A stretch of 64,000 nucleotides of DNA, taken from Escherichia coli (GTDB taxonomy: Bacteria > Pseudomonadota > Gammaproteobacteria > Enterobacterales > Enterobacteriaceae). The notes beneath the pieces were generated by a model. The model did no database searches. It was given only the letters and a program-made list of their open reading frames with translations, and had not been told where the DNA came from. The stretch's first letter is position 1, and each line of letters opens with the position of its first letter. The DNA lies in NCBI RefSeq assembly GCF_001677475.2, contig NZ_CP015229.1. One strand, written 5' to 3'. The translations under genes were made by a program, and so were the position numbers. Of the stretch, positions 2,919 to 42,631 are shown piece after piece.

Positions 2919-4826
2919 ATGTCATTAATCAGTATGCATGGCGCATGGCTGTCGTTCAGCGACGCGCCGCTTCTCGATAACGCAGAACTGCATATCGAAG
3001 ATAACGAACGTGTTTGTCTGGTGGGCCGCAACGGCGCAGGCAAATCGACGTTAATGAAAATCCTCAACCGTGAACAAGGGCTGGATGACGGTCGCATTAT
3101 TTACGAGCAAGATTTGATTGTAGCTCGTCTGCAACAGGATCCGCCGCGTAACGTTGAGGGGAGTGTTTATGATTTCGTTGCCGAAGGCATTGAAGAACAA
3201 GCGGAATACCTGAAACGCTATCACGATATTTCGCGCCTGGTGATGAACGACCCGAGCGAGAAAAATCTCAACGAACTGGCGAAGGTTCAGGAACAGCTGG
3301 ATCACCACAACCTGTGGCAGCTGGAAAACCGCATCAACGAAGTGCTGGCGCAACTGGGGTTAGATCCTAACGTTGCGCTGTCGTCGCTTTCCGGCGGCTG
3401 GTTGCGTAAAGCGGCATTAGGACGCGCGCTGGTGAGCAATCCGCGCGTATTGCTGCTCGACGAACCGACTAACCACCTGGATATCGAAACCATCGACTGG
3501 CTGGAAGGATTCCTTAAAACCTTCAATGGGACGATAATTTTCATCTCCCACGACCGTTCGTTTATCCGCAATATGGCGACGCGCATTGTTGATCTCGATC
3601 GCGGCAAGCTTGTGACCTATCCTGGGAATTACGACCAGTACCTGCTGGAAAAAGAAGAAGCCCTGCGCGTGGAAGAACTACAAAATGCCGAGTTCGATCG
3701 CAAACTGGCGCAGGAAGAGGTGTGGATCCGCCAGGGGATCAAAGCACGCCGTACCCGTAATGAAGGCCGCGTACGCGCCCTGAAAGCAATGCGTCGCGAG
3801 CGTGGCGAACGTCGCGAAGTGATGGGTACCGCAAAGATGCAGGTGGAAGAGGCCAGCCGTTCCGGTAAGATCGTTTTCGAAATGGAAGACGTTTGCTACC
3901 AGGTCGACGGTAAGCAACTGGTGAAAGATTTTTCGGCCCAGGTTCTACGTGGCGACAAAATTGCCCTGATTGGTCCGAATGGATGCGGCAAAACCACGCT
4001 GCTGAAACTGATGCTCGGTCAGCTTCAGGCGGACAGCGGGCGTATTCACGTTGGCACCAAACTGGAAGTGGCTTATTTCGATCAGCACCGTGCGGAACTG
4101 GATCCCGATAAAACGGTGATGGATAACCTTGCTGAAGGTAAGCAAGAGGTGATGGTTAACGGCAAGCCACGCCATGTTTTGGGCTATTTGCAGGACTTCC
4201 TGTTCCATCCGAAACGGGCGATGACGCCGGTACGTGCGCTTTCTGGCGGTGAGCGTAACCGCTTGTTGTTGGCGCGTTTGTTCCTCAAACCAAGCAACTT
4301 ATTGATTCTTGACGAACCGACCAACGATCTTGATGTTGAAACGCTGGAACTGCTGGAAGAACTGATCGACAGCTACCAGGGCACGGTATTGCTGGTGAGC
4401 CACGATCGTCAGTTTGTCGATAACACCGTTACAGAATGCTGGATCTTCGAAGGCGGCGGTAAAATTGGTCGTTATGTCGGCGGTTATCATGATGCCCGTG
4501 GTCAGCAAGAACAGTATGTGGCGCTCAAACAGCCTGCGGTGAAAAAAATCGAAGAAGCCGCCGCGCCAAAAGCAGAAACTGTAAAACGCAGCAGTAGCAA
4601 ACTAAGCTATAAATTGCAGCGCGAACTGGAGCAGCTACCGCAATTGCTCGAAGATCTGGAGGCGAAGCTGGAAGCCCTACAGACGCAGGTGGCGGATGCT
4701 TCCTTCTTCAGTCAGCCGCATGAGCAGACACAAAAAGTGCTCGCTGATATGGCTGCTGCAGAGCAGGAGCTGGAGCAAGCCTTTGAACGCTGGGAGTATC
4801 TTGAAGCGTTAAAAAATGGTGGCTGA
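2919..4826 (+). CDS. uup: ABC-F family ATPase Uup
   Basis: 635 aa, two ABC cassettes (GRNGAGKST / GPNGCGKTT, LSGGE signatures), C-terminal coiled coil. Confidence 0.93.
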   Translation: MSLISMHGAWLSFSDAPLLDNAELHIEDNERVCLVGRNGAGKSTLMKILNREQGLDDGRIIYEQDLIVARLQQDPPRNVEGSVYDFVAEGIEEQAEYLKRYHDISRLVMNDPSEKNLNELAKVQEQLDHHNLWQLENRINEVLAQLGLDPNVALSSLSGGWLRKAALGRALVSNPRVLLLDEPTNHLDIETIDWLEGFLKTFNGTIIFISHDRSFIRNMATRIVDLDRGKLVTYPGNYDQYLLEKEEALRVEELQNAEFDRKLAQEEVWIRQGIKARRTRNEGRVRALKAMRRERGERREVMGTAKMQVEEASRSGKIVFEMEDVCYQVDGKQLVKDFSAQVLRGDKIALIGPNGCGKTTLLKLMLGQLQADSGRIHVGTKLEVAYFDQHRAELDPDKTVMDNLAEGKQEVMVNGKPRHVLGYLQDFLFHPKRAMTPVRALSGGERNRLLLARLFLKPSNLLILDEPTNDLDVETLELLEELIDSYQGTVLLVSHDRQFVDNTVTECWIFEGGGKIGRYVGGYHDARGQQEQYVALKQPAVKKIEEAAAPKAETVKRSSSKLSYKLQRELEQLPQLLEDLEAKLEALQTQVADASFFSQPHEQTQKVLADMAAAEQELEQAFERWEYLEALKNGG

Positions 4827-4955
4827 TCGCAAAATAGTCGATTTAAACAGAGACAGCTGACAACGGTAAAATTGCCTGATGAATTGGGTTTATCAGGCAT
4901 GAAAACCAACACTTTGTTCGTCATCTGTAAAATAGCGCATCATTAAGGAGTACCA

Positions 4956-6209
4956 ATGTGCGAACATCATCATGCCGCGAAGCACATCCTGTGCTCGCAG
5001 TGTGACATGCTGGTGGCGTTACCGCGCCTTGAGCATGGTCAGAAAGCGGCATGTCCCCGGTGTGGCACAACGTTAACCGTGGCGTGGGATGCCCCTCGGC
5101 AGCGTCCCACCGCCTATGCGTTGGCTGCACTGTTCATGCTGTTGCTGTCCAACTTGTTTCCTTTTGTGAATATGAACGTTGCAGGAGTTACCAGTGAAAT
5201 TACATTACTGGAAATTCCCGGCGTGCTTTTTTCTGAGGACTACGCCAGCCTCGGCACCTTTTTCCTGTTGTTTGTGCAACTGGTTCCCGCGTTTTGTCTG
5301 ATAACCATTCTGTTACTGGTGAATCGCGCGGAATTACCGGTCCGTTTAAAAGAGCAACTGGCACGGGTGCTTTTTCAACTCAAAACCTGGGGAATGGCGG
5401 AGATTTTCCTTGCGGGTGTGCTGGTCAGTTTCGTTAAACTGATGGCCTACGGCAGCATTGGTGTCGGCAGCAGCTTTCTCCCCTGGTGTTTATTTTGTGT
5501 CCTGCAACTGCGCGCCTTTCAGTGCGTTGATCGTCGCTGGTTGTGGGACGATATCGCCCCGATGCCAGAACTGCGCCAGCCGCTAAAACCTGGCGTCACG
5601 GGGATACGTCAGGGGCTGCGTTCTTGCTCCTGTTGTACGGCAATCCTTCCTGCTGATGAACCCGTATGCCCGCGCTGTGGTACTAAAGGGTACGTTCGGC
5701 GTAGAAACAGCCTGCAATGGACACTCGCGCTGCTTGTAACGTCCATCATGCTGTATCTTCCGGCTAATATTTTGCCCATCATGGTGACGGATTTATTAGG
5801 CTCGAAGATGCCATCGACGATTCTCGCTGGGGTCATCCTGTTATGGAGCGAAGGATCTTATCCCGTCGCTGCGGTTATCTTTCTGGCCAGTATTATGGTG
5901 CCAACGTTAAAGATGATCGCCATAGCGTGGTTGTGTTGGGATGCCAAAGGGCATGGCAAGCGCGACAGTGAAAGAATGCATTTGATTTATGAAGTTGTTG
6001 AGTTTGTAGGCCGCTGGTCGATGATTGACGTTTTCGTTATCGCGGTGCTCTCGGCGCTGGTGCGTATGGGAGGTTTAATGAGTATTTATCCGGCAATGGG
6101 TGCATTAATGTTTGCTTTAGTCGTCATAATGACAATGTTTTCTGCTATGACGTTTGACCCGCGTTTGTCGTGGGATCGTCAACCTGAATCAGAGCATGAG
6201 GAGTCCTGA
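4956..6209 (+). CDS. pqiA: Paraquat-inducible membrane protein A
   Basis: 417 aa, N-terminal Cys clusters, polytopic membrane protein, followed by pqiB and pqiC. Confidence 0.9.
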   Translation: MCEHHHAAKHILCSQCDMLVALPRLEHGQKAACPRCGTTLTVAWDAPRQRPTAYALAALFMLLLSNLFPFVNMNVAGVTSEITLLEIPGVLFSEDYASLGTFFLLFVQLVPAFCLITILLLVNRAELPVRLKEQLARVLFQLKTWGMAEIFLAGVLVSFVKLMAYGSIGVGSSFLPWCLFCVLQLRAFQCVDRRWLWDDIAPMPELRQPLKPGVTGIRQGLRSCSCCTAILPADEPVCPRCGTKGYVRRRNSLQWTLALLVTSIMLYLPANILPIMVTDLLGSKMPSTILAGVILLWSEGSYPVAAVIFLASIMVPTLKMIAIAWLCWDAKGHGKRDSERMHLIYEVVEFVGRWSMIDVFVIAVLSALVRMGGLMSIYPAMGALMFALVVIMTMFSAMTFDPRLSWDRQPESEHEES

Positions 6210-6213
6210 CAGT

Positions 6214-7854
6214 ATGGAATCTAATAATGGGGAAGCCAAAATCCAGAAAGTGAAGAACTGGTCTCCCGTGTGGATATTTCCTATCGTCACGGCGCTCATT
6301 GGGGCCTGGGTTCTTTTTTATCATTACAGCCATCAGGGGCCGGAAGTGACCCTGATCACCGCGAATGCGGAAGGAATAGAAGGTGGTAAAACCACCATTA
6401 AAAGCCGTAGCGTTGACGTCGGCGTGGTTGAAAGCGCCACACTGGCTGATGATTTGACGCACGTTGAAATCAAAGCGCGGCTGAATTCCGGTATGGAAAA
6501 ATTGCTGCATAAAGATACCGTCTTTTGGGTGGTGAAACCGCAGATTGGTCGAGAAGGGATTAGCGGCCTGGGAACTCTGCTGTCTGGTGTTTATATCGAA
6601 CTGCAGCCAGGCGCGAAAGGCAGCAAAATGGATAAATACGATTTGCTGGACTCACCACCGTTGGCCCCGCCTGATGCGAAAGGTATCCGTGTGATTCTCG
6701 ATAGCAAAAAAGCCGGGCAGCTCTCGCCAGGAGATCCCGTGCTGTTCCGTGGCTATCGGGTAGGTTCGGTTGAAACCAGCACCTTCGATACGCAAAAACG
6801 CAATATCAGCTATCAACTGTTCATCAATGCACCTTATGACCGACTGGTGACCAGCAATGTTCGCTTCTGGAAAGATAGTGGCATTGCGGTTGATTTGACG
6901 TCAGCGGGAATGCGTGTGGAGATGGGCTCATTGACAACGCTGCTTAGTGGCGGTGTCAGCTTTGATGTGCCGGAAGGTCTGGATTTAGGGCAGCCAGTGG
7001 CACCGAAAACAGCTTTCGTTTTGTATGATGATCAGAAGAGCATTCAGGATTCGTTGTATACCGATCACATTGATTATCTGATGTTCTTTAAAGATTCGGT
7101 ACGCGGTCTGCAACCGGGAGCTCCGGTAGAATTCCGGGGTATTCGCCTGGGTACCGTAAGCAAAGTGCCATTCTTTGCGCCGAATATGCGTCAGACATTT
7201 AACGATGATTACCGTATTCCGGTACTGATTCGTATCGAGCCAGAGCGGCTGAAAATGCAGCTTGGCGAAAATGCGGATGTTGTTGAGCACCTTGGCGAAT
7301 TGTTGAAACGTGGTTTACGCGGATCGCTGAAAACCGGAAACCTGGTCACTGGCGCACTGTATGTTGATCTCGATTTCTATCCAAATACGCCTGCAATAAC
7401 CGGTATTCGTGAATTTAATGGTTATCAGATTATCCCGACCGTTAGCGGCGGTCTGGCGCAAATCCAGCAACGACTGATGGAAGCGTTAGATAAGATCAAC
7501 AAACTGCCATTGAATCCGATGATTGAACAGGCAACCAGTACGCTTTCTGAAAGTCAGCGCACAATGAAAAACCTGCAAACGACGCTGGATAGCATGAACA
7601 AGATCCTCGCCAGCCAGTCGATGCAGCAGTTACCGACGGATATGCAGTCAACGTTGCGTGAATTGAATCGCAGTATGCAGGGCTTCCAGCCTGGCTCCGC
7701 AGCCTACAACAAGATGGTGGCGGATATGCAGCGACTTGATCAGGTGTTGCGAGAACTGCAACCGGTGCTGAAAACGCTCAACGAGAAGAGTAACGCGCTG
7801 GTATTTGAAGCGAAGGACAAAAAAGATCCAGAGCCGAAGAGGGCTAAACAATGA
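6214..7854 (+). CDS. pqiB: MCE-domain lipid transport protein PqiB
   Basis: ORF 6154-7854; likely start at ATG 6214 (MESNNGEAKIQ...), 546 aa. Confidence 0.9.
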   Translation: MESNNGEAKIQKVKNWSPVWIFPIVTALIGAWVLFYHYSHQGPEVTLITANAEGIEGGKTTIKSRSVDVGVVESATLADDLTHVEIKARLNSGMEKLLHKDTVFWVVKPQIGREGISGLGTLLSGVYIELQPGAKGSKMDKYDLLDSPPLAPPDAKGIRVILDSKKAGQLSPGDPVLFRGYRVGSVETSTFDTQKRNISYQLFINAPYDRLVTSNVRFWKDSGIAVDLTSAGMRVEMGSLTTLLSGGVSFDVPEGLDLGQPVAPKTAFVLYDDQKSIQDSLYTDHIDYLMFFKDSVRGLQPGAPVEFRGIRLGTVSKVPFFAPNMRQTFNDDYRIPVLIRIEPERLKMQLGENADVVEHLGELLKRGLRGSLKTGNLVTGALYVDLDFYPNTPAITGIREFNGYQIIPTVSGGLAQIQQRLMEALDKINKLPLNPMIEQATSTLSESQRTMKNLQTTLDSMNKILASQSMQQLPTDMQSTLRELNRSMQGFQPGSAAYNKMVADMQRLDQVLRELQPVLKTLNEKSNALVFEAKDKKDPEPKRAKQ

Positions 7855-24385: not shown

Positions 24386-24554
24386 TGAGTCACTCTCTAT
24401 GACAGATGTAATTAATTAAGCAGCATAATGATAATGCGTAAGGGCACCCAGAAGTTTTACCCATCTTTACGCATTTGATCTGGAACAGGTTTAACAGCGG
24501 ATTATCAGGTCATTAAGCAAATATAACGCCCTGAGAATTTCGACAGGCAAAAGA

Positions 24555-24590
24555 AAAAGGGGTTAGCATTTAGCTAACCCCTTATCTTAT
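24555..24590. terminator. Hairpin downstream of the serT 3' end
   Basis: ggggttagcatttagctaacccc stem-loop. Confidence 0.6.
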
Positions 24591-24591
24591 T

Positions 24592-24651
24592 TGGCGGAAG
24601 CGCAGAGATTCGAACTCTGGAACCCTTTCGGGTCGCCGGTTTTCAAGACCG
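24592..24651 (-). tRNA. serT: 3'-terminal ~60 nt of tRNA-Ser (serT), truncated at the anticodon stem; prophage attachment junction
   Basis: Reverse complement reads CGGTCTTGAAAACCGGCGACCCGAAAGGGTTCCAGAGTTCGAATCTCTGCGCTTCCGCCA; the 5' half (D-arm, acceptor) is absent and replaced by phage DNA. Confidence 0.85.
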
Positions 24652-24792
24652 AAGAAAAATAAAGAAAAATCAGTATAATACGCAAAATAGCCGAAAAGTT
24701 AATCAGACTTAACACCAAGAAAAATCAAGATGTTAGGGAGTTATTCAGAGTTAATATACCAGGTCTTTTTGCCAGAAAATTTTCTGGATTGT

Positions 24793-25812
24793 CTACTTAC
24801 TGACCACAAGCGGCAAATCCAGTGTTGGCGTGATTTTGGTTTTACGATCGTAAATCAACACCTGATTTTCTGTTTTGTGTCCACTGAAAATTTGTTTGTC
24901 GCGACTGCTGCCTTCGTAATCTGAAATCCCTTTGGCTTTTATGTCATGGAAGTTGCACCCAAACGGAACGCCGGCTTTTTGCTCGGCTGCACGTTTAGCC
25001 TGATTCCACCAGTTGTTCAGCGTCTTGGCTATTACCTTCCCGCCTTTGGTTGTGTTGATCACATACTCGCATGTGCCGGAAGATACATTTCGGGCTAACT
25101 GGATCGCCGTACGTAATCGCGGAGACCATTCCTTGATTTGTTTAGTGCCAGTCTTGTTTTGCTCAATGTAAATCCCTTTATCCATAATATCCTGCCATTT
25201 CAGCTCGAGTACATCACCGAGCCTTGCCGCACAAAGATAGGATATCTCCATTGCAATACGTAACTGTGGAATTGCTTCCGCATATATTGCTGCATACTGT
25301 TCATCGGTGATGTAAACAGTACGGGCTTTAAGTGTGAATTTTCTGACACCTTTGCATGGATTATTTTTCACATACCCACGCTCATATCCCCATCCGTATA
25401 CACGGCTCAGACTTGCCAGTTCATGGTTTGCCTGGGTCTTGCTCTCAAGTCCTCGCTTATCCATGAAAATTCTTACCTGTTCAATTTTTACATTATCAGC
25501 AAGCACTTTTCCGAATACTGCCAACAATGCCCTTTGATGTTGCCGATAATCTTTTTGGGTTCGGGGGGCCAGTTCTGTAAATGCAGGGGAGTCCATAAAC
25601 ATGTGCCATAATTTAGCTACTGTCATTATGTTGTGGAGTTTTGCTTTTTCCAGCTCATAATTTTGCCAGACTTTAGCTACGCTGGTTTCCCGCACTCTTC
25701 CGAGCCCTATAGTTCTTGTGCTTCCTTCGGGTTTCCATACGTAACTGTAACCGTTCGATCTAACACGCGGTGGTAGTGCATTATCTTTTTTGTTTTTTCT
25801 TGGTCTTCCCAT
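24793..25812 (-). CDS. int: Prophage tyrosine integrase
   Basis: 339 aa, adjacent to tRNA junction, C-terminal H-x-x-K...GH...Y catalytic pattern. Confidence 0.85.
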   Translation of the reverse strand: MGRPRKNKKDNALPPRVRSNGYSYVWKPEGSTRTIGLGRVRETSVAKVWQNYELEKAKLHNIMTVAKLWHMFMDSPAFTELAPRTQKDYRQHQRALLAVFGKVLADNVKIEQVRIFMDKRGLESKTQANHELASLSRVYGWGYERGYVKNNPCKGVRKFTLKARTVYITDEQYAAIYAEAIPQLRIAMEISYLCAARLGDVLELKWQDIMDKGIYIEQNKTGTKQIKEWSPRLRTAIQLARNVSSGTCEYVINTTKGGKVIAKTLNNWWNQAKRAAEQKAGVPFGCNFHDIKAKGISDYEGSSRDKQIFSGHKTENQVLIYDRKTKITPTLDLPLVVSK

Positions 25813-26032
25813 TGTTCAGCGCCTCAAAATCGGGTTCAGCGGAAACCAGCTCAGGTGCTTTTGGCATCGTTGTCAGTCCGTGTGGAATATCCCTGCGAAG
25901 AACTATTGGTTCGTTTTTAGGACCGATTACAAATGGGATGCCGTGCAGCCTTAACTGGTGTTGCTGTTTTGTGTATCGCTCGTATTTCGTGATCTCTTGA
26001 ATCTCTGCTGGCGATAGAGTTAATTCGTACAT
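25781..26032 (-). CDS. xis: Putative excisionase
   Basis: 83 aa basic protein overlapping the int start; call by position. Confidence 0.5.
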   Translation of the reverse strand: MYELTLSPAEIQEITKYERYTKQQHQLRLHGIPFVIGPKNEPIVLRRDIPHGLTTMPKAPELVSAEPDFEALNNGKTKKKQKR

Positions 26033-26098: not shown

Positions 26099-28549
26099 TT
26101 AAAAATCAACCGGATTCGGGATCAGTTTTTGCCAGATTGCTGAAACGTATTTTGCCTGGTAACGAGCGTCATCAAGTGCATTATGGCGCTCACCTTCGAA
26201 TGGGATAGCTGTTCTGGCATCGAAGTCTATGGCTTTCCCCAGCTCAACGATTGTGCGTACATCGCGATCGTTGCAGTAGCGCCAAGGGCAGGGGATACCC
26301 TGTCGTTCGTATGAACGGCGTAAAATCACGTTGTCGAAGTTGGCCCCATTACCCCAGACCTGAACAAAAAATTCACCGGAGTTTTCGTCGATAAATTCCC
26401 GCAATTGCAGCAGTGCATCATCTAACGGGATTTCATCGGTCAGAATGGCAGATTGCGCCTCGCGTGATTGCTTAAGCCACCATTTTATGGTGTCACGATT
26501 AATGACTCCGCCAGCAGTTTCCAGATCGATGGTCTTACTAAATTCCGGCCCCATATCTCCGGTTTGCGGATCGAAAAATATTGCACCTATTGAGATAATC
26601 GGGGCATCGGGATTTTTTCCCATGGTTTCAAGGTCGATCATAAGATGGTCACATGACCTGCTTGTGGATGTGATATTGTGATAACCGTTCACCTTAATTA
26701 AGGGATCTGTTGCTTCGCCAGTTTCATTATCGCTGGCGTGATGCTGATTGCCTCCAGTGTTCTCCTTGTGTGGATGTTCAGCGCCTTCCATTTCCTCCGG
26801 ATCATTCTCCTGAGCTTCAACCTGATTCTCTTCATCGAATGTTTCCTGGTATGTTGCGTTTCCCATGACCGCGCCACAGTCAGGACAGTTGCCGCCGCTG
26901 CTCTGACCGCAGACGGTGCAGACTTTTTCCGGTTCCTGTTGCACTACTGGTTCGGATTGTTTCGTTTCTGGTTCGTTTTGTTGCGCATTTGGGCTGTTTT
27001 GTTCCGCTTTCTGGTCGTTCTGTGCCGTTTCTTGCTGGTTCTGGTTCACAGAATCGCGGGTTTCAATCCCCTTCACCCATTTCGGATCATTCGGGTCGCT
27101 AATCCCTGCAACAAATTCACCACGTGATGCAGCGAGCAACTGACTGGCGTCAGGCAGGCTGATATTGGCTGCCTGCATAATTTTGTTTACTTCGTCAGCG
27201 GTAACTTTTACCTGATTAACCGGATCTATCTGTGCCTGAGTATCCAGCGATTGCGTGTCCTGGCGAAGTTCAGTTGTATCCGGCTCCATTGCTTCAGTCG
27301 TTGCCTGTTCATCTGCCATTGCGTCAGACGGTTGTGATTTTTCATCATTATTTTTTTCTTCTTCTGTTTCGCGTTTAGCAGCCAGTTCGCGGTTAACTTC
27401 TTCCTGGATATCTTTTTCCGGTGTATGTCGTGCAGCAGCGAGAGTTTCTTCGGTAGGGTTCTCGTGATCAGTCTCCGTTAAGTGGGCGTTGATATACTCC
27501 TGAAGGCGTCCCGGGTAGAGATAAAGTTCAGGGTGAGCACTTCGGATAAGTGCAAAAATAGCGGCACGGGAATAATCCAGAATACCAGGGGTTGCGCGAA
27601 GTGCTGCGGACCATTCTTTGAACGGACTTTCTTTCTTCCGGACGACTTCTTTTGCGCGACGATAAACGCTGCCCGGAATTTCATAAATATTAAAATCCAT
27701 CGGAAGTGTGGCCGCTGCAATCTCCACATCCAGCGTATCGAAGGTGTGTACTAAATTCGGATTGCGATCGGTTTTGTTCCCGCCGCCAGCATTAGCACCG
27801 GAAGCCGTGCGGATGATGCGTGAAACACGATTCCCCTTCATCCACTCTTTTGTAAGCAGACCGCGATCGGTGTAGTCAGCGCCCAGGTATGCTTCGAAAA
27901 AAGCAGTCATCAGTCCCAGGTCTGAATTGCCAGGATTAGGGAAAACTTTGTCAGTGTCACGAACCAGTTTGTGGAGATCGCGAATTTCCAGCGGTTCGAG
28001 TTGCGCTGCTTTATTTGAGATGGCCAGCGCGGTAACGGCGGGAAGTTTTTCATCCTGTGCGTTATGTAATGCGCGCAGTTCGCCCCGCGAAACGTGAGTG
28101 ATCGGTTTTTCGCTGCCGTGCTGAGCAAGCCAGCGAATGGGAAGTATCTGGCCAGAAACCGGGAGTAGCATATTCTCCTCAATATCAGTCATGTCTTCGC
28201 CGTTGACGTTGGTATTGTCAGTGCTGGCTGGTTTATCCTGAACAGAGGGCGCGATAAATACCATTGTGATACCATCTTCCCCGCCTTTTTCGTATCGGTT
28301 GCAGAATTCGGTATCAAACACACCTTCCGGAGGCAGGTCATTCACAACGGGTAAATGGACGCGGACGGGTTTTTTAAAGTCGTCTTCATCATAATCGTTG
28401 TCATCCATTGCGGTAATACAACGGGAGATGGCAACAGATAATTTTTTTGCTGTGGTCCAGTAAAAACCACCTTTAATTCCCAGGCGTTTTCTGACTTTGT
28501 CATTTTTTGCTTCGCAATATAGCGCAAATTCTTCTTTTTCAGTGCTCAT
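26099..28549 (-). CDS. Large prophage exonuclease with C-terminal DnaQ-like (DEDDh) 3'-5' exonuclease domain and central acidic/Q-rich region
   Basis: 816 aa; C-terminus LMIDLETMGKN...HNALDDARYQA; CxxC...CxxC zinc ribbon; low-complexity E/Q/N-rich segment. Confidence 0.6.
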   Translation of the reverse strand: MSTEKEEFALYCEAKNDKVRKRLGIKGGFYWTTAKKLSVAISRCITAMDDNDYDEDDFKKPVRVHLPVVNDLPPEGVFDTEFCNRYEKGGEDGITMVFIAPSVQDKPASTDNTNVNGEDMTDIEENMLLPVSGQILPIRWLAQHGSEKPITHVSRGELRALHNAQDEKLPAVTALAISNKAAQLEPLEIRDLHKLVRDTDKVFPNPGNSDLGLMTAFFEAYLGADYTDRGLLTKEWMKGNRVSRIIRTASGANAGGGNKTDRNPNLVHTFDTLDVEIAAATLPMDFNIYEIPGSVYRRAKEVVRKKESPFKEWSAALRATPGILDYSRAAIFALIRSAHPELYLYPGRLQEYINAHLTETDHENPTEETLAAARHTPEKDIQEEVNRELAAKRETEEEKNNDEKSQPSDAMADEQATTEAMEPDTTELRQDTQSLDTQAQIDPVNQVKVTADEVNKIMQAANISLPDASQLLAASRGEFVAGISDPNDPKWVKGIETRDSVNQNQQETAQNDQKAEQNSPNAQQNEPETKQSEPVVQQEPEKVCTVCGQSSGGNCPDCGAVMGNATYQETFDEENQVEAQENDPEEMEGAEHPHKENTGGNQHHASDNETGEATDPLIKVNGYHNITSTSRSCDHLMIDLETMGKNPDAPIISIGAIFFDPQTGDMGPEFSKTIDLETAGGVINRDTIKWWLKQSREAQSAILTDEIPLDDALLQLREFIDENSGEFFVQVWGNGANFDNVILRRSYERQGIPCPWRYCNDRDVRTIVELGKAIDFDARTAIPFEGERHNALDDARYQAKYVSAIWQKLIPNPVDF

Positions 28550-28639
28550 TGATAAACCTCATTACAGATTTAAGGGTGAACAAATCCCTGCCATTGCTGG
28601 CATATAAAAATGAAACCGGATATTTATTACTGTGCTGTT

Positions 28640-28831
28640 TTAAAGTCCTGCCGGGACTTCGTTATTATCCATGCGAATAACTTTATCGACCGGATAACAG
28701 TTACCGGGAATTTTTTGTTCTGCTGCGGCAGCCATGCATTCTTTCATTGAACCGTATAAGCCAGTCACCAGCTCAAGAGATTCGCCGGAAACAAGATAAA
28801 CTGTCAGAACGAGTGCAAATGTTGTATTCAT
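28640..28831 (-). CDS. YdfD-like small protein
   Basis: 63 aa immediately downstream of the dicB-like gene, as in the Qin dicB-ydfD arrangement. Confidence 0.45.
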   Translation of the reverse strand: MNTTFALVLTVYLVSGESLELVTGLYGSMKECMAAAAEQKIPGNCYPVDKVIRMDNNEVPAGL

Positions 28832-29016
28832 TGTTTATATCCTTTTTGCCGCAGGTCCAGACGAGCCAGCATTGAAGGAATGCATACTTCATTTAACAGG
28901 TCCTGCTCGAGTGTTCTCTGCTTAATGGCGTCTTCAATAAATGTTTTGTCTCCGGTGATAACGCCAATTTCGAAACGAAGTTCAGACGTACTGGCATTGC
29001 ATGATAACTTTTCCAT
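28828..29016 (-). CDS. dicB: DicB-like cell division inhibitor
   Basis: 62 aa; FEIGV...EDAI..R...LLN..CI.SMLARL pattern matches DicB as recalled. Confidence 0.75.
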   Translation of the reverse strand: MEKLSCNASTSELRFEIGVITGDKTFIEDAIKQRTLEQDLLNEVCIPSMLARLDLRQKGYKQ

Positions 29017-29190
29017 TATCGCGTCCTCAACAATGAATTTTGTGATGCGGTGCCTGGTGCCTCCAGGTGACGTTAACCAGTTAACAATTAACGCCGGAGT
29101 ATTTCACGTTACGCCAGTAAAGGACCGCTTTACTGTTTTAACTGTTCCGCGTGCGCTTAGCCGCATTCACCGCATCACAAAATTCACTTT

Positions 29191-29245
29191 AAAAAGGGCG
29201 GACATCAGCCAGCAATGAAAACTGATGCCGCCAAAGGTACCAATC
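29191..29245 (-). ncRNA. dicF: DicF-like small RNA with intrinsic terminator
   Basis: Reverse strand reads TTTGGCGGCATCAGTTTTCATTGCTGGCTGATGTCCGCCCTTTTT, close to the recalled DicF sequence, immediately upstream of dicB. Confidence 0.5.
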
Positions 29246-29784
29246 AACATGGAGTGTTGCGGCGGGGTTGTCACTCAGGCGTATGGTCAACCTGACAACC
29301 CGGTGTCACCAGTGGGGGTAAGGAAAACCCCGCCATACTTACCGCCGCGCCATTTCGCGGAGTGCCACAACCGGAAGCGCACGGTCGACGAAAATTTAAC
29401 GACAGGCTATCTATGAACCATAAACCTCGCCGTGCGCTTTCGCGTTATGCCCTGACTTTTCAGGGAAATATCCTTTCAGTAAACTGTCAGTGCCGGATGT
29501 TCACCCGTGTCCGGCGCACGCACTCCACCTCACCCGTGGAGAACCCCTTAATTACCAACCCTCAGGAGAGTGAATGTTAAAATCAACTCTTATTGCTAAA
29601 TGCCTTTATCAAAATCGCATGGTAAGCAGCATTTCAATAGGCGAGTCTGCAGTTAAAAGTATTTTCGAAGAGTTCTTTCCCGGGCATGATTTTAATAAAT
29701 GGAATACCAAATTACCGCCAGCAGTTTCAACGCGTATTCTGAAAGCAACTGAAAGAGCAAGTACAATTCGCGTTAACTATTTCA

Positions 29785-30204
29785 TTAAAGATTTGTGGGA
29801 TCTTTGATATCCACAGAGCCTAAAGTATGTGCATATGGATGTGCTATTGTGCGCCCTCGCAGATTTGCATCATTTTCTAAATTCACTGAACGAAACAGGG
29901 CATCAACAAGGCTCTGTACAATGCAAAGGCAATCGAAGACTGTCGCTGTTTCTGTTTTGATTGATGAAAGAACATGGCCATTCACGCAAACAGAAATTAC
30001 CCGTTCATTAACATCGCTTTCCTGCTTTTGATTATCAGAACTATATAGCCCAGAAAAAGCATTGCGCACATTATGAACCATATTATCGATGGTTTCTTTT
30101 TCTACGGTACTCAGGTCAAGAGTCGCCAGTTGAGAACGAACTATATTCGCTGCCATTTCCTGGAATGGTACTGGTAAATCTTTAAATTCCATCGTCAACC
30201 TCAT
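29785..30204 (-). CDS. Hypothetical prophage early protein
   Basis: 139-aa ORF in the leftward early operon. Confidence 0.4.
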   Translation of the reverse strand: MRLTMEFKDLPVPFQEMAANIVRSQLATLDLSTVEKETIDNMVHNVRNAFSGLYSSDNQKQESDVNERVISVCVNGHVLSSIKTETATVFDCLCIVQSLVDALFRSVNLENDANLRGRTIAHPYAHTLGSVDIKDPTNL

Positions 30205-30462: not shown

Positions 30463-30515
30463 GTCAGGCGAGGTGGTATCCTCTGAGGGGTCTGTTACTC
30501 GAGAGGAAATTGGTT

Positions 30516-30716
30516 ATGAATACAATCAAGTTTTCTTGCCCAGAATGTGGTGGCGAAGTCTTTGACACATCCTTTAAGCCGCAGGGCTCTGACAGTTTCG
30601 CGGGAGCCATCTGCAAAAATTGTGGTCACCTTGTAACTGAAGATGAGTCCTCGCAGTTCGATGACGAAATCGTTGATAATATCTTCGGCGCACTCACCAG
30701 AGATTTCCTGAAGTAA
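30516..30716 (+). CDS. Hypothetical zinc-ribbon protein
   Basis: CPECGG...CKNCGH pattern and GAGAGGAAA RBS; conflicts with antisense ORF 30495-30851. Confidence 0.35.
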   Translation: MNTIKFSCPECGGEVFDTSFKPQGSDSFAGAICKNCGHLVTEDESSQFDDEIVDNIFGALTRDFLK

Positions 30717-31116
30717 AAGCGCATGCCGTTTAGTTACCGCTCTGATCATTCTTACTTGTCCGGTAATGGCGCTGACATCAGTATAAAGCGCCATTGCTGC
30801 TTCTTTGCCGATCCCAGGATGCCTTCCATTCTGATGTTTGACTTCGCCCACTGAGAAATCCTCTGTTTCCCCTTAACGCCGGGGTAGCGGAACAAAAACC
30901 TGCTGCATAGTTAAAGTTGAACCCTGCCGTCATGTTCTTACGCCTCGGGCTGGCTACTTAACCCCTGACCACTGCCTGGTAACTCGAAGTATTGCCCTGC
31001 GTTTTGTGGGGCGGGGTGGGTTAGTAAAAATAGTTTATACAAAAATAAACTAAACAGTCAATATGCAACTTAACTCTTTGGCGAGGATAACCCCTGTTGA
31101 GAGGGGCTTCGGGGGA

Positions 31117-31404
31117 TTAAGGTGTTACAGGGAACTGTCGGCGGGCGTGAACTACGCTAACAATTTCAATGCCTGAAATTGTCACGCGGTATAGAATTAT
31201 GTAATTGGGGTGAGCAACAATTTCACGCAAACCCGGAACTCTGTCGCTTGGCGGGTATAAATACGGATGCTCAGATAATGGCAGGACGCAAGTCCTTAAG
31301 CGTTTCCACAAACGTTCTGCCGCATCTATATCAAAACGAGCAATATAGCTAGTTATATCATCCAAGTCGGCATCTGCGCTTTCGAGCCATAAAACCGGTA
31401 ACAT
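31117..31404 (-). CDS. RelE/ParE-family toxin
   Basis: 95 aa, small basic protein immediately downstream of a small antitoxin-like ORF. Confidence 0.6.
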   Translation of the reverse strand: MLPVLWLESADADLDDITSYIARFDIDAAERLWKRLRTCVLPLSEHPYLYPPSDRVPGLREIVAHPNYIILYRVTISGIEIVSVVHARRQFPVTP

Positions 31405-31596
31405 TTACTGCTTGCTCCGTTCCTTGCGCATGTTAGCAAAGCGTTCAGCCATTCTGCGTTCAACTTCGTCATGTGGGATGGCTGGACGTGGATCAGCAAG
31501 GCTTGCGGCCACTTTTGCACGCAGCCATTCGTTATAACTATTTTCTTGCTCGATGGTTTCAAATTCAGAAACCATTGGTGAAAGGGCTGTGTTCAT
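31405..31596 (-). CDS. Cognate antitoxin (small acidic DNA-binding protein)
   Basis: 63 aa from MNTALSPMVSEFE...; abuts the toxin start. Confidence 0.5.
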   Translation of the reverse strand: MNTALSPMVSEFETIEQENSYNEWLRAKVAASLADPRPAIPHDEVERRMAERFANMRKERSKQ

Positions 31597-31631
31597 GGCG
31601 AACCTCGTTTTGTAAGTGCTGGTAATTCTGC

Positions 31632-32027
31632 CTAGGTAACTTTTTGTTGTGCTGCTAGCCACCTTGCAACTATACGATCCATTGTCTCTTTTTTTTCCTT
31701 CATATCTTTAAGTATTTGCTGTTGATCTTCCTCTGGAAATGCCTCAAATGTTTGAAGTAGCTCCTTTTGCTTAGGAGATATTTTTAATATATCCTGTGTT
31801 TTGTCTTCTTTTTCTTCATTTAATGGTAAGAAAAACCAATGTTGGGGAAAACCCGTTACTTCAGATAGTTTATCTAGATTAGCTGCTGTAGGGCTTGATA
31901 TACCACAAACCCACCTTTGGACGGATTGTTGAGCAATACCAATTCTGCGCGCAAGCTCTGCTTGACTCCAGCCTTTTTCTAATAGAAGCATCTTAATTCT
32001 AAGAGCACTAATTTCGAGTACGCCCAT
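31632..32027 (-). CDS. XRE-family HTH repressor (CI/RacR-like), paralog A
   Basis: N-terminal HTH LRIKMLLLEKGWSQAELARRIGIAQQSVQRW; C-terminal domain shared with the next ORF. Confidence 0.65.
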   Translation of the reverse strand: MGVLEISALRIKMLLLEKGWSQAELARRIGIAQQSVQRWVCGISSPTAANLDKLSEVTGFPQHWFFLPLNEEKEDKTQDILKISPKQKELLQTFEAFPEEDQQQILKDMKEKKETMDRIVARWLAAQQKVT

Positions 32028-32057: not shown

Positions 32058-32429
32058 TCAGGCTCGGCGACCTTGTCGCGCCAACCAACGTGCAACAAGA
32101 TCTTCCATTGCCTCTTTTTTATTTCTTAGTTCTTTTATGATCTCCTGCTGTTCATTATCAGGAAAAGCACTAAATATTTGTAGTAATTCCAATTGGTTAG
32201 GGGTTAATGCCATAGATCTTGATGACGAAGATTCTGTTGTGTCTTCAGGTTCCATATCAAGATAACCCCCAGGCATCCCATATGTTTGCTCAATACGTCT
32301 AGCTGCCTTTTCGCCAAACGTAGATTTACCGCTCATTAACTGAGATAAGTAACTTTTCTCTTTAGGCGGCAAAGTCCTGTCTTTGAACCACTCTTTGAGG
32401 CGTAAACGCCGAATCTCTTTTGTTTCCAT
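32058..32429 (-). CDS. HTH repressor, paralog B, divergent from cro-like gene
   Basis: C-terminus LTPNQLELLQIFSAFPDNEQQEIIKELRNKKEAMEDLVARWLA parallels paralog A. Confidence 0.6.
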   Translation of the reverse strand: METKEIRRLRLKEWFKDRTLPPKEKSYLSQLMSGKSTFGEKAARRIEQTYGMPGGYLDMEPEDTTESSSSRSMALTPNQLELLQIFSAFPDNEQQEIIKELRNKKEAMEDLVARWLARQGRRA

Positions 32430-38821: not shown

Positions 38822-39880
38822 ATGCGGGTATTGCTTCGACCTGTTCTGGTACCGGAACTCGGACTGGTTATCGTTAAGCCAGGCCGTGAATCCATGCAGG
38901 TATTCCATAACGGCAGAGTACTGGTGGAACCGGAACCGAAAAGTATGCGCGGTCTGCCGTCCGGAGTCGTTCCTGCCGTTCGCCAGCCGCTGGAGGAGGA
39001 TAAATCATTACTGCCGTTTTTCAGTAACGCACGGGTGATTCGTGCTGCTGGTGGTGCTGGTGCATTGTCTGACTGGCTGTTGCGCCATATTAAATCCTGC
39101 CAGTGGCCACACGGCGATTATCACCACAGTGAAACCGTCATTCACCGTTATGGCGCTGGCGCGATGGTGTTGTGCTGGCACTGCGACAACCAGTTGCGTG
39201 ACCAGACAGCCGAATCACTCGAGCAACTTGCTCATCAAAACCTGTCAGCATGGATGATTGACGTCATCCGTCACGCAATGAATGGCACACAGGAGCGGGA
39301 ATTATCGCTGGCTGAATTATCCTGGTGGGCAGTCTGCAATCAGGTGGCGGACGCGCTACCGGAGACAGTATTACGTCGTTCTCTGAGGTTACGTGCGGAA
39401 AAAATCCGCTCGGTGTATCGCGAAAGCGACATCGTACCGGGAGAGCAGACCGCCACCAGCATACTAAAGCAGCGCACAAAAAATCTTGCGCCGTTGCCTC
39501 ACTCTCATCAGCAACAGAACCCGCCACAGGAAAAGACGGTGGTCAGCATTGCCGTTGATCCGGAGTCACCGGCTCAGTATCTCCAGCGCCAGAAACCACA
39601 ACGGGAAGAGATGCCCGTATACACGCGCTGGGTAAAAACGCAGAAATGCATGACGTGCGGTAATCAGGCAGATGATCCGCATCACATCATTGGTCATGGA
39701 CTGGGAGGGATGGGAACAAAGGCTGATGATTTGTTTGTTATTCCGCTGTGCCGTAAATGTCATAACGAACTGCACGCCGGGGTAAAAGATTTTGAAGAAA
39801 AACACGGCAGCCAGCTGTTGTTGCTGATTCGTTTTTTAATGCACGCGAGAAATTCGGGTGTCCTGAAGTGGAAAGCATGA
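38822..39880 (+). CDS. YdfU-like (DUF968-type) protein with C-terminal Cys/His zinc motif
   Basis: 352 aa; CMTCGN...HHIIGHG...CRKCHNELH. Confidence 0.5.
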   Translation: MRVLLRPVLVPELGLVIVKPGRESMQVFHNGRVLVEPEPKSMRGLPSGVVPAVRQPLEEDKSLLPFFSNARVIRAAGGAGALSDWLLRHIKSCQWPHGDYHHSETVIHRYGAGAMVLCWHCDNQLRDQTAESLEQLAHQNLSAWMIDVIRHAMNGTQERELSLAELSWWAVCNQVADALPETVLRRSLRLRAEKIRSVYRESDIVPGEQTATSILKQRTKNLAPLPHSHQQQNPPQEKTVVSIAVDPESPAQYLQRQKPQREEMPVYTRWVKTQKCMTCGNQADDPHHIIGHGLGGMGTKADDLFVIPLCRKCHNELHAGVKDFEEKHGSQLLLLIRFLMHARNSGVLKWKA

Positions 39881-40261
39881 ATGACTGAACGCATAGAATT
39901 TGTTTTGCCTTACCCGCCGACGGTAAACACCTACTGGAGACGTCATGGCAATACGTATTTCATCTCGGAAGTCGGAAAGCGTTATCGCCGTGATGTGGCT
40001 CTAATTGTTCGCCAGCAGCGACTGAAATTAAACCTGTCCGGAAGGCTGGCGATAAAGATTATTGCAGAGCCACCGGATAAGCGCCGTCGTGACCTGGACA
40101 ATATCCTGAAAGCACCGCTGGATGCGTTGACGCATGCGGGACTGCTTATCGACGACGAGCAGTTTGATGAAATCAATATTGTGCGCGGTCAGCTTGTTCC
40201 TGGTGGTCGGCTGGGCGTGAAGATTGACGAAATAATGCATGACGGGCAGGTCCAAAAATGA
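39881..40261 (+). CDS. rusA: Holliday junction resolvase RusA
   Basis: 126 aa; PPTVNTYWRRHGN...RRRDLDNILKAPLDALTHAGLLIDDEQ. Confidence 0.85.
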   Translation: MTERIEFVLPYPPTVNTYWRRHGNTYFISEVGKRYRRDVALIVRQQRLKLNLSGRLAIKIIAEPPDKRRRDLDNILKAPLDALTHAGLLIDDEQFDEINIVRGQLVPGGRLGVKIDEIMHDGQVQK

Positions 40262-41079
40262 AACTGGAAGATTTACCGAAATACTATTCCCCAAAATCGC
40301 CAGGCCTGACTGATGCATCCGCCTCGACGTCAAAAGATGCGCTGAGTATCACTGATGTGATGGCTGCGCAGGGTATGACACAGAACCGGGCTGAGATGGG
40401 ATTTTCTGCGTTCCTGGGGAAAATGGGCATTAGTATGAATGACAGGGCGCGGGCAACAGAATTACTGGCAGATTATGCATTAAGTCAGTGCGGTCGTGTG
40501 GCTGCGTTAAGAAAACTTCCGGCAGAGATAAAACCGGCAGTGATGCGCATTATGGCTTCGTACGCTTTTGAGGATTATGCCCGCAGCGCAGCGAGTAAAA
40601 AGCAATGCCCTTGTTGCCGAGGGGAAAAATTTATTGAAAGCGAGGTTTTTACAAACAAGGTTCAGTATCCGGATGGTAAGCCGCCAGTATGGGCAAAGTG
40701 TACAAAAGGCGTGTATCCGTCTTACTGGGAAGAATGGAAAAAAATCCGGGAGGTGGTGAAGGTTTCCTGTCCTGAATGTAAAGGGAAGGGAGAGATTTCG
40801 ACCGCCTGTAAAGACTGCCGTGGGCGTGGTGTAGCCATTCATCGTGAAGAGTCAGAAAAACGGGGTATGCCTGTTATCAGGGACTGCCAGCGTTGTGGCG
40901 GTCGTGGCTATGAAAGACAGCCGTCGACGGAGGCATTTAATGCCATATGTGAGGTGACAAATCAAATAACACGCGCGTCATGGGAAAAAACGGTTAAGCA
41001 ATTCTATGACACTCTGGTGGTTCGGTTTGACATTGAAGAGGCATGGGCGGAGCGGCAGTTAAAAAAGGTAACCAGATAA
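40258..41079 (+). CDS. Putative late-gene antiterminator (Q-like) with zinc-finger cysteines
   Basis: 273 aa; position after rusA and before tR'-like terminator and lysis genes. Confidence 0.5.
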   Translation: MKLEDLPKYYSPKSPGLTDASASTSKDALSITDVMAAQGMTQNRAEMGFSAFLGKMGISMNDRARATELLADYALSQCGRVAALRKLPAEIKPAVMRIMASYAFEDYARSAASKKQCPCCRGEKFIESEVFTNKVQYPDGKPPVWAKCTKGVYPSYWEEWKKIREVVKVSCPECKGKGEISTACKDCRGRGVAIHREESEKRGMPVIRDCQRCGGRGYERQPSTEAFNAICEVTNQITRASWEKTVKQFYDTLVVRFDIEEAWAERQLKKVTR

Positions 41080-42379: not shown

Positions 42380-42455
42380 GGCCCTTTAGCTCAGTGGTGA
42401 GAGCGAGCGACTCATAATCGCCAGGTCGCTGGTTCAAATCCAGCAAGGGCCACCA
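42380..42455 (+). tRNA. tRNA with CAT anticodon (Met or Ile2-lysidine; ileZ-like)
   Basis: 76 nt cloverleaf, anticodon loop CTCATAA, terminal CCA. Confidence 0.8.
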
Positions 42456-42460
42456 CCTTA

Positions 42461-42541
42461 CCGCCATTAGCTCATCGGGAAGAGCAAATGACATGATAAC
42501 AGGGTTGTTGGTGCGGGGTTCGAGTCCTCGATGGCGGTCCA
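42461..42541 (+). tRNA. tRNA-like sequence (argN-like; non-canonical anticodon arm)
   Basis: Acceptor stem CCGCCAT/ATGGCGG, D-arm and T-arm (GGTTCGAGTCC) present, terminal CCA; anticodon stem does not fold canonically. Confidence 0.5.
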
Positions 42542-42554
42542 TTATCTGCATCAT

Positions 42555-42631
42555 GCGTTGTTAGCTCAGTCGGACAGAGCAATTGCCTTCTAAGCAATCG
42601 GTCACTGGTTCGAATCCAGTACAACGCGCCA
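42555..42631 (+). tRNA. tRNA-Arg (anticodon TCT; argO-like)
   Basis: 77 nt, anticodon loop CTTCTAA, GGTTCGAATCC T-loop, terminal CCA. Confidence 0.8.

Follow-up and report, generated by a model that had tools for sequence, protein, structure and literature searches.

The stretch of DNA analysed here, called the window below, is 64,000 nucleotides long and comes from Escherichia coli (contig NZ_CP015229.1, assembly GCF_001677475.2). It begins in the E. coli chromosome (rlmI-yccX-tusE-yccA, about 99% identical to E. coli genomes) and continues into a lambdoid prophage. The last gene of the early-left operon of this prophage before the excisionase and integrase genes (dicB-DUF1482-exo-xis-int) encodes an exonuclease of 816 amino acids, which is the subject of this study. 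From its domains and its alignment with RecE, it appears to belong to the RecE family, with a nuclease head that was exchanged for another at a domain boundary.

An 816-residue exonuclease had been proposed here from the sequence alone, and the gene itself is beyond dispute. The open reading frame (ORF) runs from ATG to stop on the minus strand behind a Shine-Dalgarno sequence, NCBI holds a 100% identical protein (P0001) named “exonuclease [Escherichia coli]”, and a cluster 92% identical to it is found on at least 1000 contigs. The ratio of nonsynonymous to synonymous substitution rates (dN/dS), taken against an orthologue with 93% identity that another E. coli carries at this yccA site, is 0.17 for the whole gene and 0.14, 0.31 and 0.08 for the N-terminal module, the linker and the nuclease head, respectively. 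A 98%-identical copy (L001) differs by too few substitutions to give a useful ratio. The gene is real, and all three of its modules are under purifying selection. It is also already catalogued: the gene is very common in prophages, and its domain architecture is known.

Two Pfam families match the protein: PF06630 (Enterobacterial exodeoxyribonuclease VIII) at residues 57-187 (E = 3e-26) and PF16473 (Rv2179c-like 3'-5' exoribonuclease domain) at residues 635-806 (E = 1.2e-67). The NCBIfam equivalog model for RecE, NF007259, covers residues 1-619 with only positions 1-603 of its 877 and scores 874.8 bits, under its curated cutoff of 1269. In BLASTP against RecE of the K-12 Rac prophage, residues 58-618 align with RecE residues 50-591 at 56% identity, a stretch that takes in the acidic linker, the “LLAASRGEFVxGISDPNDPKWVKG” island and a cysteine motif, and there is no alignment past RecE residue 591. 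At the nucleotide level, the identity to recE is mosaic, with 88-95% at residues 181-260, 88-92% at residues 561-600 and 45-60% outside these patches, and it drops to noise past residues ~615-620, which mark the breakpoint. The C-terminal nuclease of K-12 RecE itself is a PD-(D/E)XK domain (PF12684, residues 615-850), a family that is matched nowhere in the exonuclease by Pfam. Since the homology to RecE ends where the PD-(D/E)XK nuclease of RecE starts, the head has been swapped.

What replaced it is a domain of a different fold. The sequence-only reading had recognised a DnaQ-type exonuclease in the C-terminal ~200 residues, and the last ~185 residues indeed match PF16473 with 227.5 bits (cutoff 27) over profile positions 2-177 of 177. 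The catalytic residues are D639 and E641 (Exo I), D739 (Exo II) and H789 and D794 (Exo III), and these columns are invariant in T2 DexA, Sb30 of phage ST64B, a Pseudoalteromonas phage homologue, the protein of coliphage mEp460, an EcD-type protein and diverged fusions. In the AlphaFold2 model, the predicted local distance difference test (pLDDT) score of the head is mostly 84-95, with 62-77 at residues ~681-710 and 731-740. The best Foldseek match in the PDB is T4 DexA (8kel, E = 7e-8), and RNase T, a DnaQ domain, Orn/oligoribonucleases and Cap18 are also matched. Domain search and structure prediction both give a DEDDh domain here rather than a RecE-type one. The head is thus best read as a DEDDh (DnaQ-like) exonuclease of the DexA/Rv2179c subfamily with its two-metal catalytic set intact and a predicted 3'-5' activity. 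Stand-alone or fused homologues of it occur in 1537 phage records, the dexA genes of the T-even phages among them.

Most of the remainder of the protein is shared with RecE. The full-length AlphaFold2 model (alignment of 54 sequences) has residues 1-400 confidently folded, in addition to the folded domain at residues 634-810, and when the N-terminal module was modelled alone (residues 1-402, alignment of 70 sequences) its mean pLDDT was 92.8. No structural relative was found for this ~400-residue module, and all Foldseek matches of the full-length model in the PDB fell on the C-terminal ~200 residues. In RecE, the N-terminal domain is dispensable for basic RecET recombination and enhances linear-linear recombination (PMC11611040). 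Everything ahead of the head had been taken for an E/Q/N-rich region. This holds for residues 361-632, which are acidic and Q/N-rich (net charge -38, 21% D+E, 18% Q+N), but residues 1 to ~400 are a folded homologue of the RecE N-terminus.

The linker that follows has pLDDT values below 50 at residues 404-448 and 493-628. Between these lies the short island, with predicted helices at residues 451-460 and 468-475 (pLDDT ~70-79) and a motif that both Rac RecE and the exonuclease of mEp460 have kept. Repetitive DNA had been supposed to encode residues 493-558 (~26880-27070), but the evidence for it is weak: Tandem Repeats Finder gave one 27-nucleotide array with a marginal score of 33 (27017-27043), and a repeat finder gave one equally marginal pair of 21-mers with 71% identity. 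The bias in this region is compositional and not a repeat array. A CxxC...CxxC ribbon, also described earlier, is present as CTVC-x7-CPDC, but it is only a 15-residue motif within a low-confidence segment. It occurs in Rac RecE and in the mEp460 protein as well, and in 5 of the 36 nuclease-headed representatives of the family (3 of 15 with a DEDDh head and 2 of 21 with a PD-(D/E)XK head). The four-cysteine knuckle is thus a sporadic feature of the linker rather than a hallmark of the family; its four cysteines may bind zinc or another metal.

Phage records label the gene exodeoxyribonuclease VIII, and the match of the N-terminal 600 residues to PF06630 and to the RecE equivalog model could be taken as the sign of a genuine orthologue of RecE, with 5'-3' exonuclease activity on double-stranded DNA in the service of RecET recombination. 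This is refuted at the sequence level and deserves next to no credence: the protein lacks the PF12684 PD-(D/E)XK head, the sole nuclease-active part of RecE, its NCBIfam score (875) falls short of the cutoff (1269), and the ORFs that run from int to the Q antiterminator gene yielded no RecT. The same ORFs hold no Bet, Erf or other annealase family either, and the only recombination-related genes among them encode a RusA-like resolvase and an HNH endonuclease. The kinship with the 866-residue RecE of Rac extends to the N-terminal module, the acidic linker, the “DPNDPKW” island, the CxxC-x7-CxxC knuckle and the position of both genes in a lambdoid early-left operon upstream of xis-int. In contrast, RecE has a 5'-3' PD-(D/E)XK nuclease where a DEDDh domain of predicted 3'-5' polarity stands here, the first ~57 residues differ, and the downstream recT, ralR and rcbA genes of Rac are absent. 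Because its predicted polarity is opposite to that of RecE and lambda Exo and it has no annealase partner, the exonuclease would be unable to carry out single-strand-annealing recombination of the RecET type or to hand over 3' tails. The molecular description that results, of a DEDDh head on RecE-type modules, without an annealase and not part of a RecET system, is held with high confidence.

The RusA-like Holliday-junction resolvase and the HNH endonuclease (352 residues, phrog_96) lie in the nin region (window 38822-40261, plus strand). Apart from these two and the exonuclease, no DNA-processing enzyme was found in the early part of the prophage.

Two phage proteins are especially close to the exonuclease. 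The 823-residue exonuclease of coliphage mEp460 (L041:3645-6116) is more than 90% identical over residues ~445-816 and lies in the same dicB-ydfD-exo-xis-int order, but its N-terminal ~245 residues are unrelated. Because the mEp460 protein keeps residues ~445-816 behind an unrelated N-terminus, a second recombination breakpoint is implied ahead of the linker. This would divide the protein into three modules, N, M (the linker) and C (the head), with the linker and the head moving as a unit. Sb30 of Salmonella phage ST64B (189 residues) is 58% identical to the head and occupies the same slot directly upstream of xis-int, but it lacks the N and M modules. The literature search found no functional characterisation of Sb30 or of the mEp460 exonuclease. 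In phage vB_EcoM-606R7, which has the same gene order, the orthologous exonuclease (L042:4001-6444) is annotated as two coding sequences, 4001-4921 and 5077-6444, which points to a frameshift or stop codon in the linker region, or to an error of sequencing there. The exoD gene of the DLP12 prophage of K-12 was considered as a possible fragment of this type of exonuclease, but BLASTP shows no similarity between the two.

The family defined by the N-terminal part is narrow. An exhaustive HMMER search with residues 1-620 against 1.84 billion cluster representatives returned only 263 proteins at E ≤ 1e-3. Among the family representatives of at least 450 residues, 15 carry the DEDDh head, 21 the PD-(D/E)XK head of RecE and 46 neither, the last group including some fragments. 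In two members of the family, RecT is fused to the protein. The gene neighbourhoods differ with the head: in three relatives with a DEDDh head (40-46% identity), xis or int comes directly after the exonuclease gene and there is no RecT, one PD-(D/E)XK-headed relative is followed by RecT as in Rac, and one head-less variant is followed by DUF1187-xis-int.

Several tails recur among the head-less proteins, and Pfam matches nothing in them. One ends in “...AALQGLCANPA...DD[IL]P.MA”, and another is 270-410 residues long and ends in “...EYAKYLEGRL.RLEEVK”. The tail proteins were recorded as two sets, the first consisting of P0122, P0134, P0175, P0179, P0189, P0213, P0216, P0219, P0227, P0229, P0233, P0234, P0244, P0259, P0265 and P0268 and the second of P0128, P0184, P0191, P0194, P0201, P0226 and P0262 (loci L039 and L040). 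At L040, a protein of the “...EYAKYLEGRL.RLEEVK” type is followed by a Sipho_Gp157 gene.

A DEDDh fold had been expected to be unusual at this prophage position, where a nuclease of the RecE or lambda Exo type was taken to be the rule. The reverse is true in E. coli. DNA encoding the DEDDh head is found in 4062 of 5426 complete genomes (75%), in 8092 copies and with up to seven per genome, versus 1736 genomes (32%; 1827 copies) for the PD-(D/E)XK head of Rac RecE. The whole gene, at 80% coverage or more, is present in 1271 of these genomes. Enterohaemorrhagic E. coli O157 has a DEDDh-headed exonuclease, and the functional phages mEp460 and ST64B fill the same slot in the same way. In this species, then, it is normally the DEDDh type that fills the slot.

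These data also bear on whether the fusion might be an accident, a decaying recombinant between recE and an unrelated exonuclease without any selected function. Lambdoid prophages are highly mosaic, the patches of 88-95% identity to Rac recE beside others of 45-60% are a sign of recent recombination, and one phage record has the gene split into two coding sequences. However, dN/dS is low (0.08-0.31) in every module, the DEDDh-headed architecture is kept at the same genomic position in representatives with as little as ~34-46% identity (the 15 representatives above), and the gene is intact in functional phages and present in thousands of genomes. An accidental fusion is accordingly considered very improbable.

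The features of the gene and its immediate neighbours are listed in Table 1. The dicB-ydfD-exo-xis-int order recurs in other E. coli prophages as well as in mEp460 and vB_EcoM-606R7. Beyond dicB, the prophage continues with small genes, a RelE/ParE pair, two repressor-like genes of the helix-turn-helix (HTH) type and a divergent operon with cro, YdaT and O-like genes.

Table 1. Features of the exonuclease gene and its neighbours in the window.
Feature	Position in window	Strand	Residues	Basis or remark
Tyrosine integrase gene adjoining chromosomal yccA	24793..25812	-		Pfam; annotated orthologous site
Excisionase-like DUF4224 (xis) gene, directly downstream of the exonuclease	25781..26032	-		Pfam; same order in relatives
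Whole exonuclease gene (816 residues plus stop)	26099..28549	-	1-816	ORF list; identical NCBI protein; dN/dS
Predicted DEDDh 3'-5' exonuclease head, DexA/Rv2179c-like	26102..26653	-	633-816	PF16473; catalytic residues; Foldseek
Acidic, Q/N-rich, mostly disordered linker, common to RecE	26654..27343	-	403-632	Composition; pLDDT; RecE alignment
CxxC-x7-CxxC four-cysteine knuckle (CTVC...CPDC)	26876..26920	-	544-558	Cys 544, 547, 555 and 558
Q/N-rich stretch (33% Q+N)	26921..27073	-	493-543	Composition
Short helical island with conserved “LLAASRGEFVxGISDPNDPKW” motif	27074..27205	-	449-492	AlphaFold2
N-terminal folded module, RecE N-terminal type	27344..28549	-	1-402	PF06630; YdfE_N/YdfE_C in newer Pfam
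Shine-Dalgarno GAGG, 8 nucleotides 5' of the exonuclease ATG	28557..28560	-		Read from sequence
DUF1482 (YdfD-like) and DicB genes, directly upstream of the exonuclease	28640..29016	-		Pfam
DUF1482/YdfD	28640-28831	-		
DicB	28828-29016	-		

Several further observations concern this neighbourhood. A stretch of ~770 bp upstream of dicB (29016-29785) contains no convincing ORF on the minus strand. Prophages of the Qin type carry the small RNA DicF near dicB; a search of 24-34 kb of the window with Rfam gave no family at the gathering threshold, and no DicF was found beside dicB. At 30510-30716 (plus strand), there is a 68-residue ORF with two CxxC pairs and weak Pfam matches to zinc ribbons, antisense within a 118-residue ORF at 30495-30851 (minus strand) that matches phrog_21318, and either ORF may be the genuine gene. 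Two overlapping small ORFs at 31117-31662 (minus strand), between the early-left and the repressor-like genes, are a candidate RelE/ParE-type toxin (95 residues) and an antitoxin-like ORF (85 residues) upstream of it, and a related E. coli prophage has a “RelE/ParE family toxin” annotated in the matching region. PADLOC gave no match for this pair. The repressor-like genes at 31632-32027 and 32058-32429 (both minus strand) are 36% identical over their C-terminal ~75 residues (E = 1e-18), with HTH_3 recognisable only in the former, and look as if a gene of the immunity region had been duplicated in tandem.

Genes for tRNA-Met(CAT) and tRNA-Arg(TCT) are found at 42380-42631 (plus strand), downstream of the Q-like antiterminator gene (40258-41079), an arrangement common to many phages of the Stx and lambdoid types. 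Between yccA and the integrase (24386-24792) no tRNA gene was detected, nor is one annotated at this site in strain AH19B041. In K-12, serT lies beside yccA, which would suggest that the tRNA end of the attachment site is to be sought at the other side of the prophage, outside the window.

One of the two nearest characterised relatives of the head is DexA (exonuclease A) of phages T2 and T4, the best PDB match by both sequence and structure and, like the present protein, encoded by a phage. Its structure has been solved (8KEL and 8KEN; Kang et al. 2025, PMC12153337, for 8KEL), and its residues D7, E9, D119, H186 and D191 correspond to D639, E641, D739, H789 and D794 here. However, DexA is only ~23-26% identical, is a stand-alone protein of 227 residues with extra loops, and comes from a virulent phage whose DNA is modified. 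The residues W152 and D169, by which DexA recognises 5-hydroxymethylcytosine (5hmC), align with C759 and K772.

EcD, an E. coli homologue of DexA termed “HREX” (GenBank HAK9828821.1), is the nearest relative of the head with an experimentally tested biological role. It degrades the 5hmC-containing DNA of T4 while sparing unmodified double-stranded DNA, and when expressed from a plasmid it protects cells from T4 (PMC12153337). The EcD-type sequence used here for comparison represents a 189-residue family from viral contigs that was reached through the EcD cloning primer in the supplement of that paper and has the reported A78.

The exonuclease might by this example be a prophage defence or superinfection-exclusion nuclease, which would degrade incoming DNA, such as the modified DNA of T-even phages, from its 3' ends and spare that of the host, with the N and M modules providing the targeting. 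The EcD-type protein shares a DexA-like DEDDh domain on E. coli mobile DNA and is 38% identical to the head over 183 residues, and a head that is so abundant in complete genomes of E. coli, frequently with more than one copy, and that is under strong purifying selection would suit such a role. The specific residues do not. EcD has W and E at the positions of DexA W152 and D169, where the present protein has a cysteine and a lysine, and D90 of DexA, a tetramer-forming aspartate whose replacement by A78 is the mark of the EcD type, has its counterpart here in D711 (DexA S87 corresponds to P708). The exonuclease does not have the HREX-specific residues in this alignment, which at 23-38% identity could be shifted by a few residues (W756 sits three residues upstream of C759). 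Moreover, EcD stands alone, whereas some 630 residues of RecE-type sequence precede the head here, PADLOC matches neither the exonuclease nor its small neighbours, and the gene is promoter-distal in an early-left operon under repression and shows no obvious promoter of its own. A defence role is doubtful, but it is the main alternative to the phage-side role favoured below.

The substrate might also be RNA. PF16473 is named after Rv2179c, a 3'-5' exoribonuclease of Mycobacterium tuberculosis with the same DEDDh chemistry, many database entries bear the name “3'-5' exoribonuclease”, and RNase T and Orn are among the structural neighbours of the head. In addition, the TONDO nucleases, ISG20-like DEDDh exonucleases with variable auxiliary domains that are carried by prophages and plasmids, block the RNA phages MS2 and Qbeta by trimming the 3' untranslated region (2026 preprint, PMC13344964). 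A DEDDh domain with a large auxiliary region is found in the present protein too, a likeness judged by the description of the TONDOs. An enzyme of either kind would act on RNA 3' ends, in restriction of RNA phages or in the processing or degradation of transcripts, whether of the host or of the phage, or of small RNAs. However, the closest characterised relatives by sequence and structure, T4 DexA and EcD, are DNA exonucleases. Rv2179c, a stand-alone cellular enzyme, is more distant than DexA, as it was absent from a sequence search of the PDB (E ≤ 0.01). The TONDOs were picked as homologues of the ISG20/RNase_T type, and the RNase_T family (PF00929) scores 21.2 bits on the head, under its gathering cutoff of 24. 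The gene also occupies a lambdoid DNA-recombination slot and bears RecE N-terminal modules. An RNA substrate is regarded as improbable.

The account that is favoured, with somewhat more confidence than doubt, is that of a RecE-family phage exonuclease built of three modules, with an exchanged nuclease head and, as a best guess, a role on the side of the phage. By the gene order, the exonuclease would be co-transcribed with dicB from the repressor-controlled early-left promoter and made mainly after induction or infection. The head would strip nucleotides from free 3'-OH ends, as do DexA, RNase T and Rv2179c, while the N and M modules would tether, target or oligomerise it, presumably as they do for RecE. 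A phage-side role in trimming or degrading 3' DNA ends during lytic growth is suggested tentatively, at rather less than even confidence; by analogy with T4 DexA, it could consist of scavenging or of removing 3' tails that are recombinogenic or trigger defences.

Several points weigh against this account. The literature search found no biochemical or genetic study of this protein or of any fusion of a RecE N-terminus with a DEDDh head. Whether the substrate is DNA or RNA, single-stranded or double-stranded, is not readable from the sequence, and the Pfam family takes its name from an exoribonuclease. The timing of expression is deduced from gene order, and a scan for promoters and terminators returned no more sites than in shuffled sequence. 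Lambdoid phages are not known to break down the DNA of their host, so that there is no obvious need for scavenging. Finally, a gene this common, with up to seven copies in genomes with multiple prophages, would also fit a benefit to the host, such as defence.

A further-reaching proposal, considered rather unlikely, is that the RecE-type N-terminal module and linker are a portable platform for targeting or tethering with swappable heads, and that the DEDDh form, the commonest one in E. coli, is a widespread but unrecognised nuclease for exclusion or anti-recombination, not a recombination enzyme. The heads of such a platform would be the 5'-3' PD-(D/E)XK nuclease with RecT, the 3'-5' DEDDh nuclease without a partner and at least two recurrent non-nuclease tails. 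The DEDDh head would be delivered to the same DNA ends or the same host partner as RecE, and the protein might even co-assemble with RecE in strains that have both.

Under the favoured reading of a RecE-family exonuclease with an exchanged head, the naming of these proteins matters in practice. Many records call the protein “exodeoxyribonuclease VIII/RecE” on the strength of its N-terminal 600 residues. Because it lacks the RecE nuclease, has the opposite predicted polarity and is not accompanied by RecT, it should not count as a RecET-type system. The gene is among the commonest prophage genes of E. coli, found in 75% of complete genomes and under purifying selection, and it is often mis-named. 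The exchange of heads also bears on the old question of the purpose of the 600 N-terminal residues of RecE, the part called “dispensable”. The retention of the N-terminal module and the linker ahead of unrelated heads speaks for a separate function of these two modules. This question now becomes approachable by experiment, and phage mEp460 is a tractable system in which to address it.

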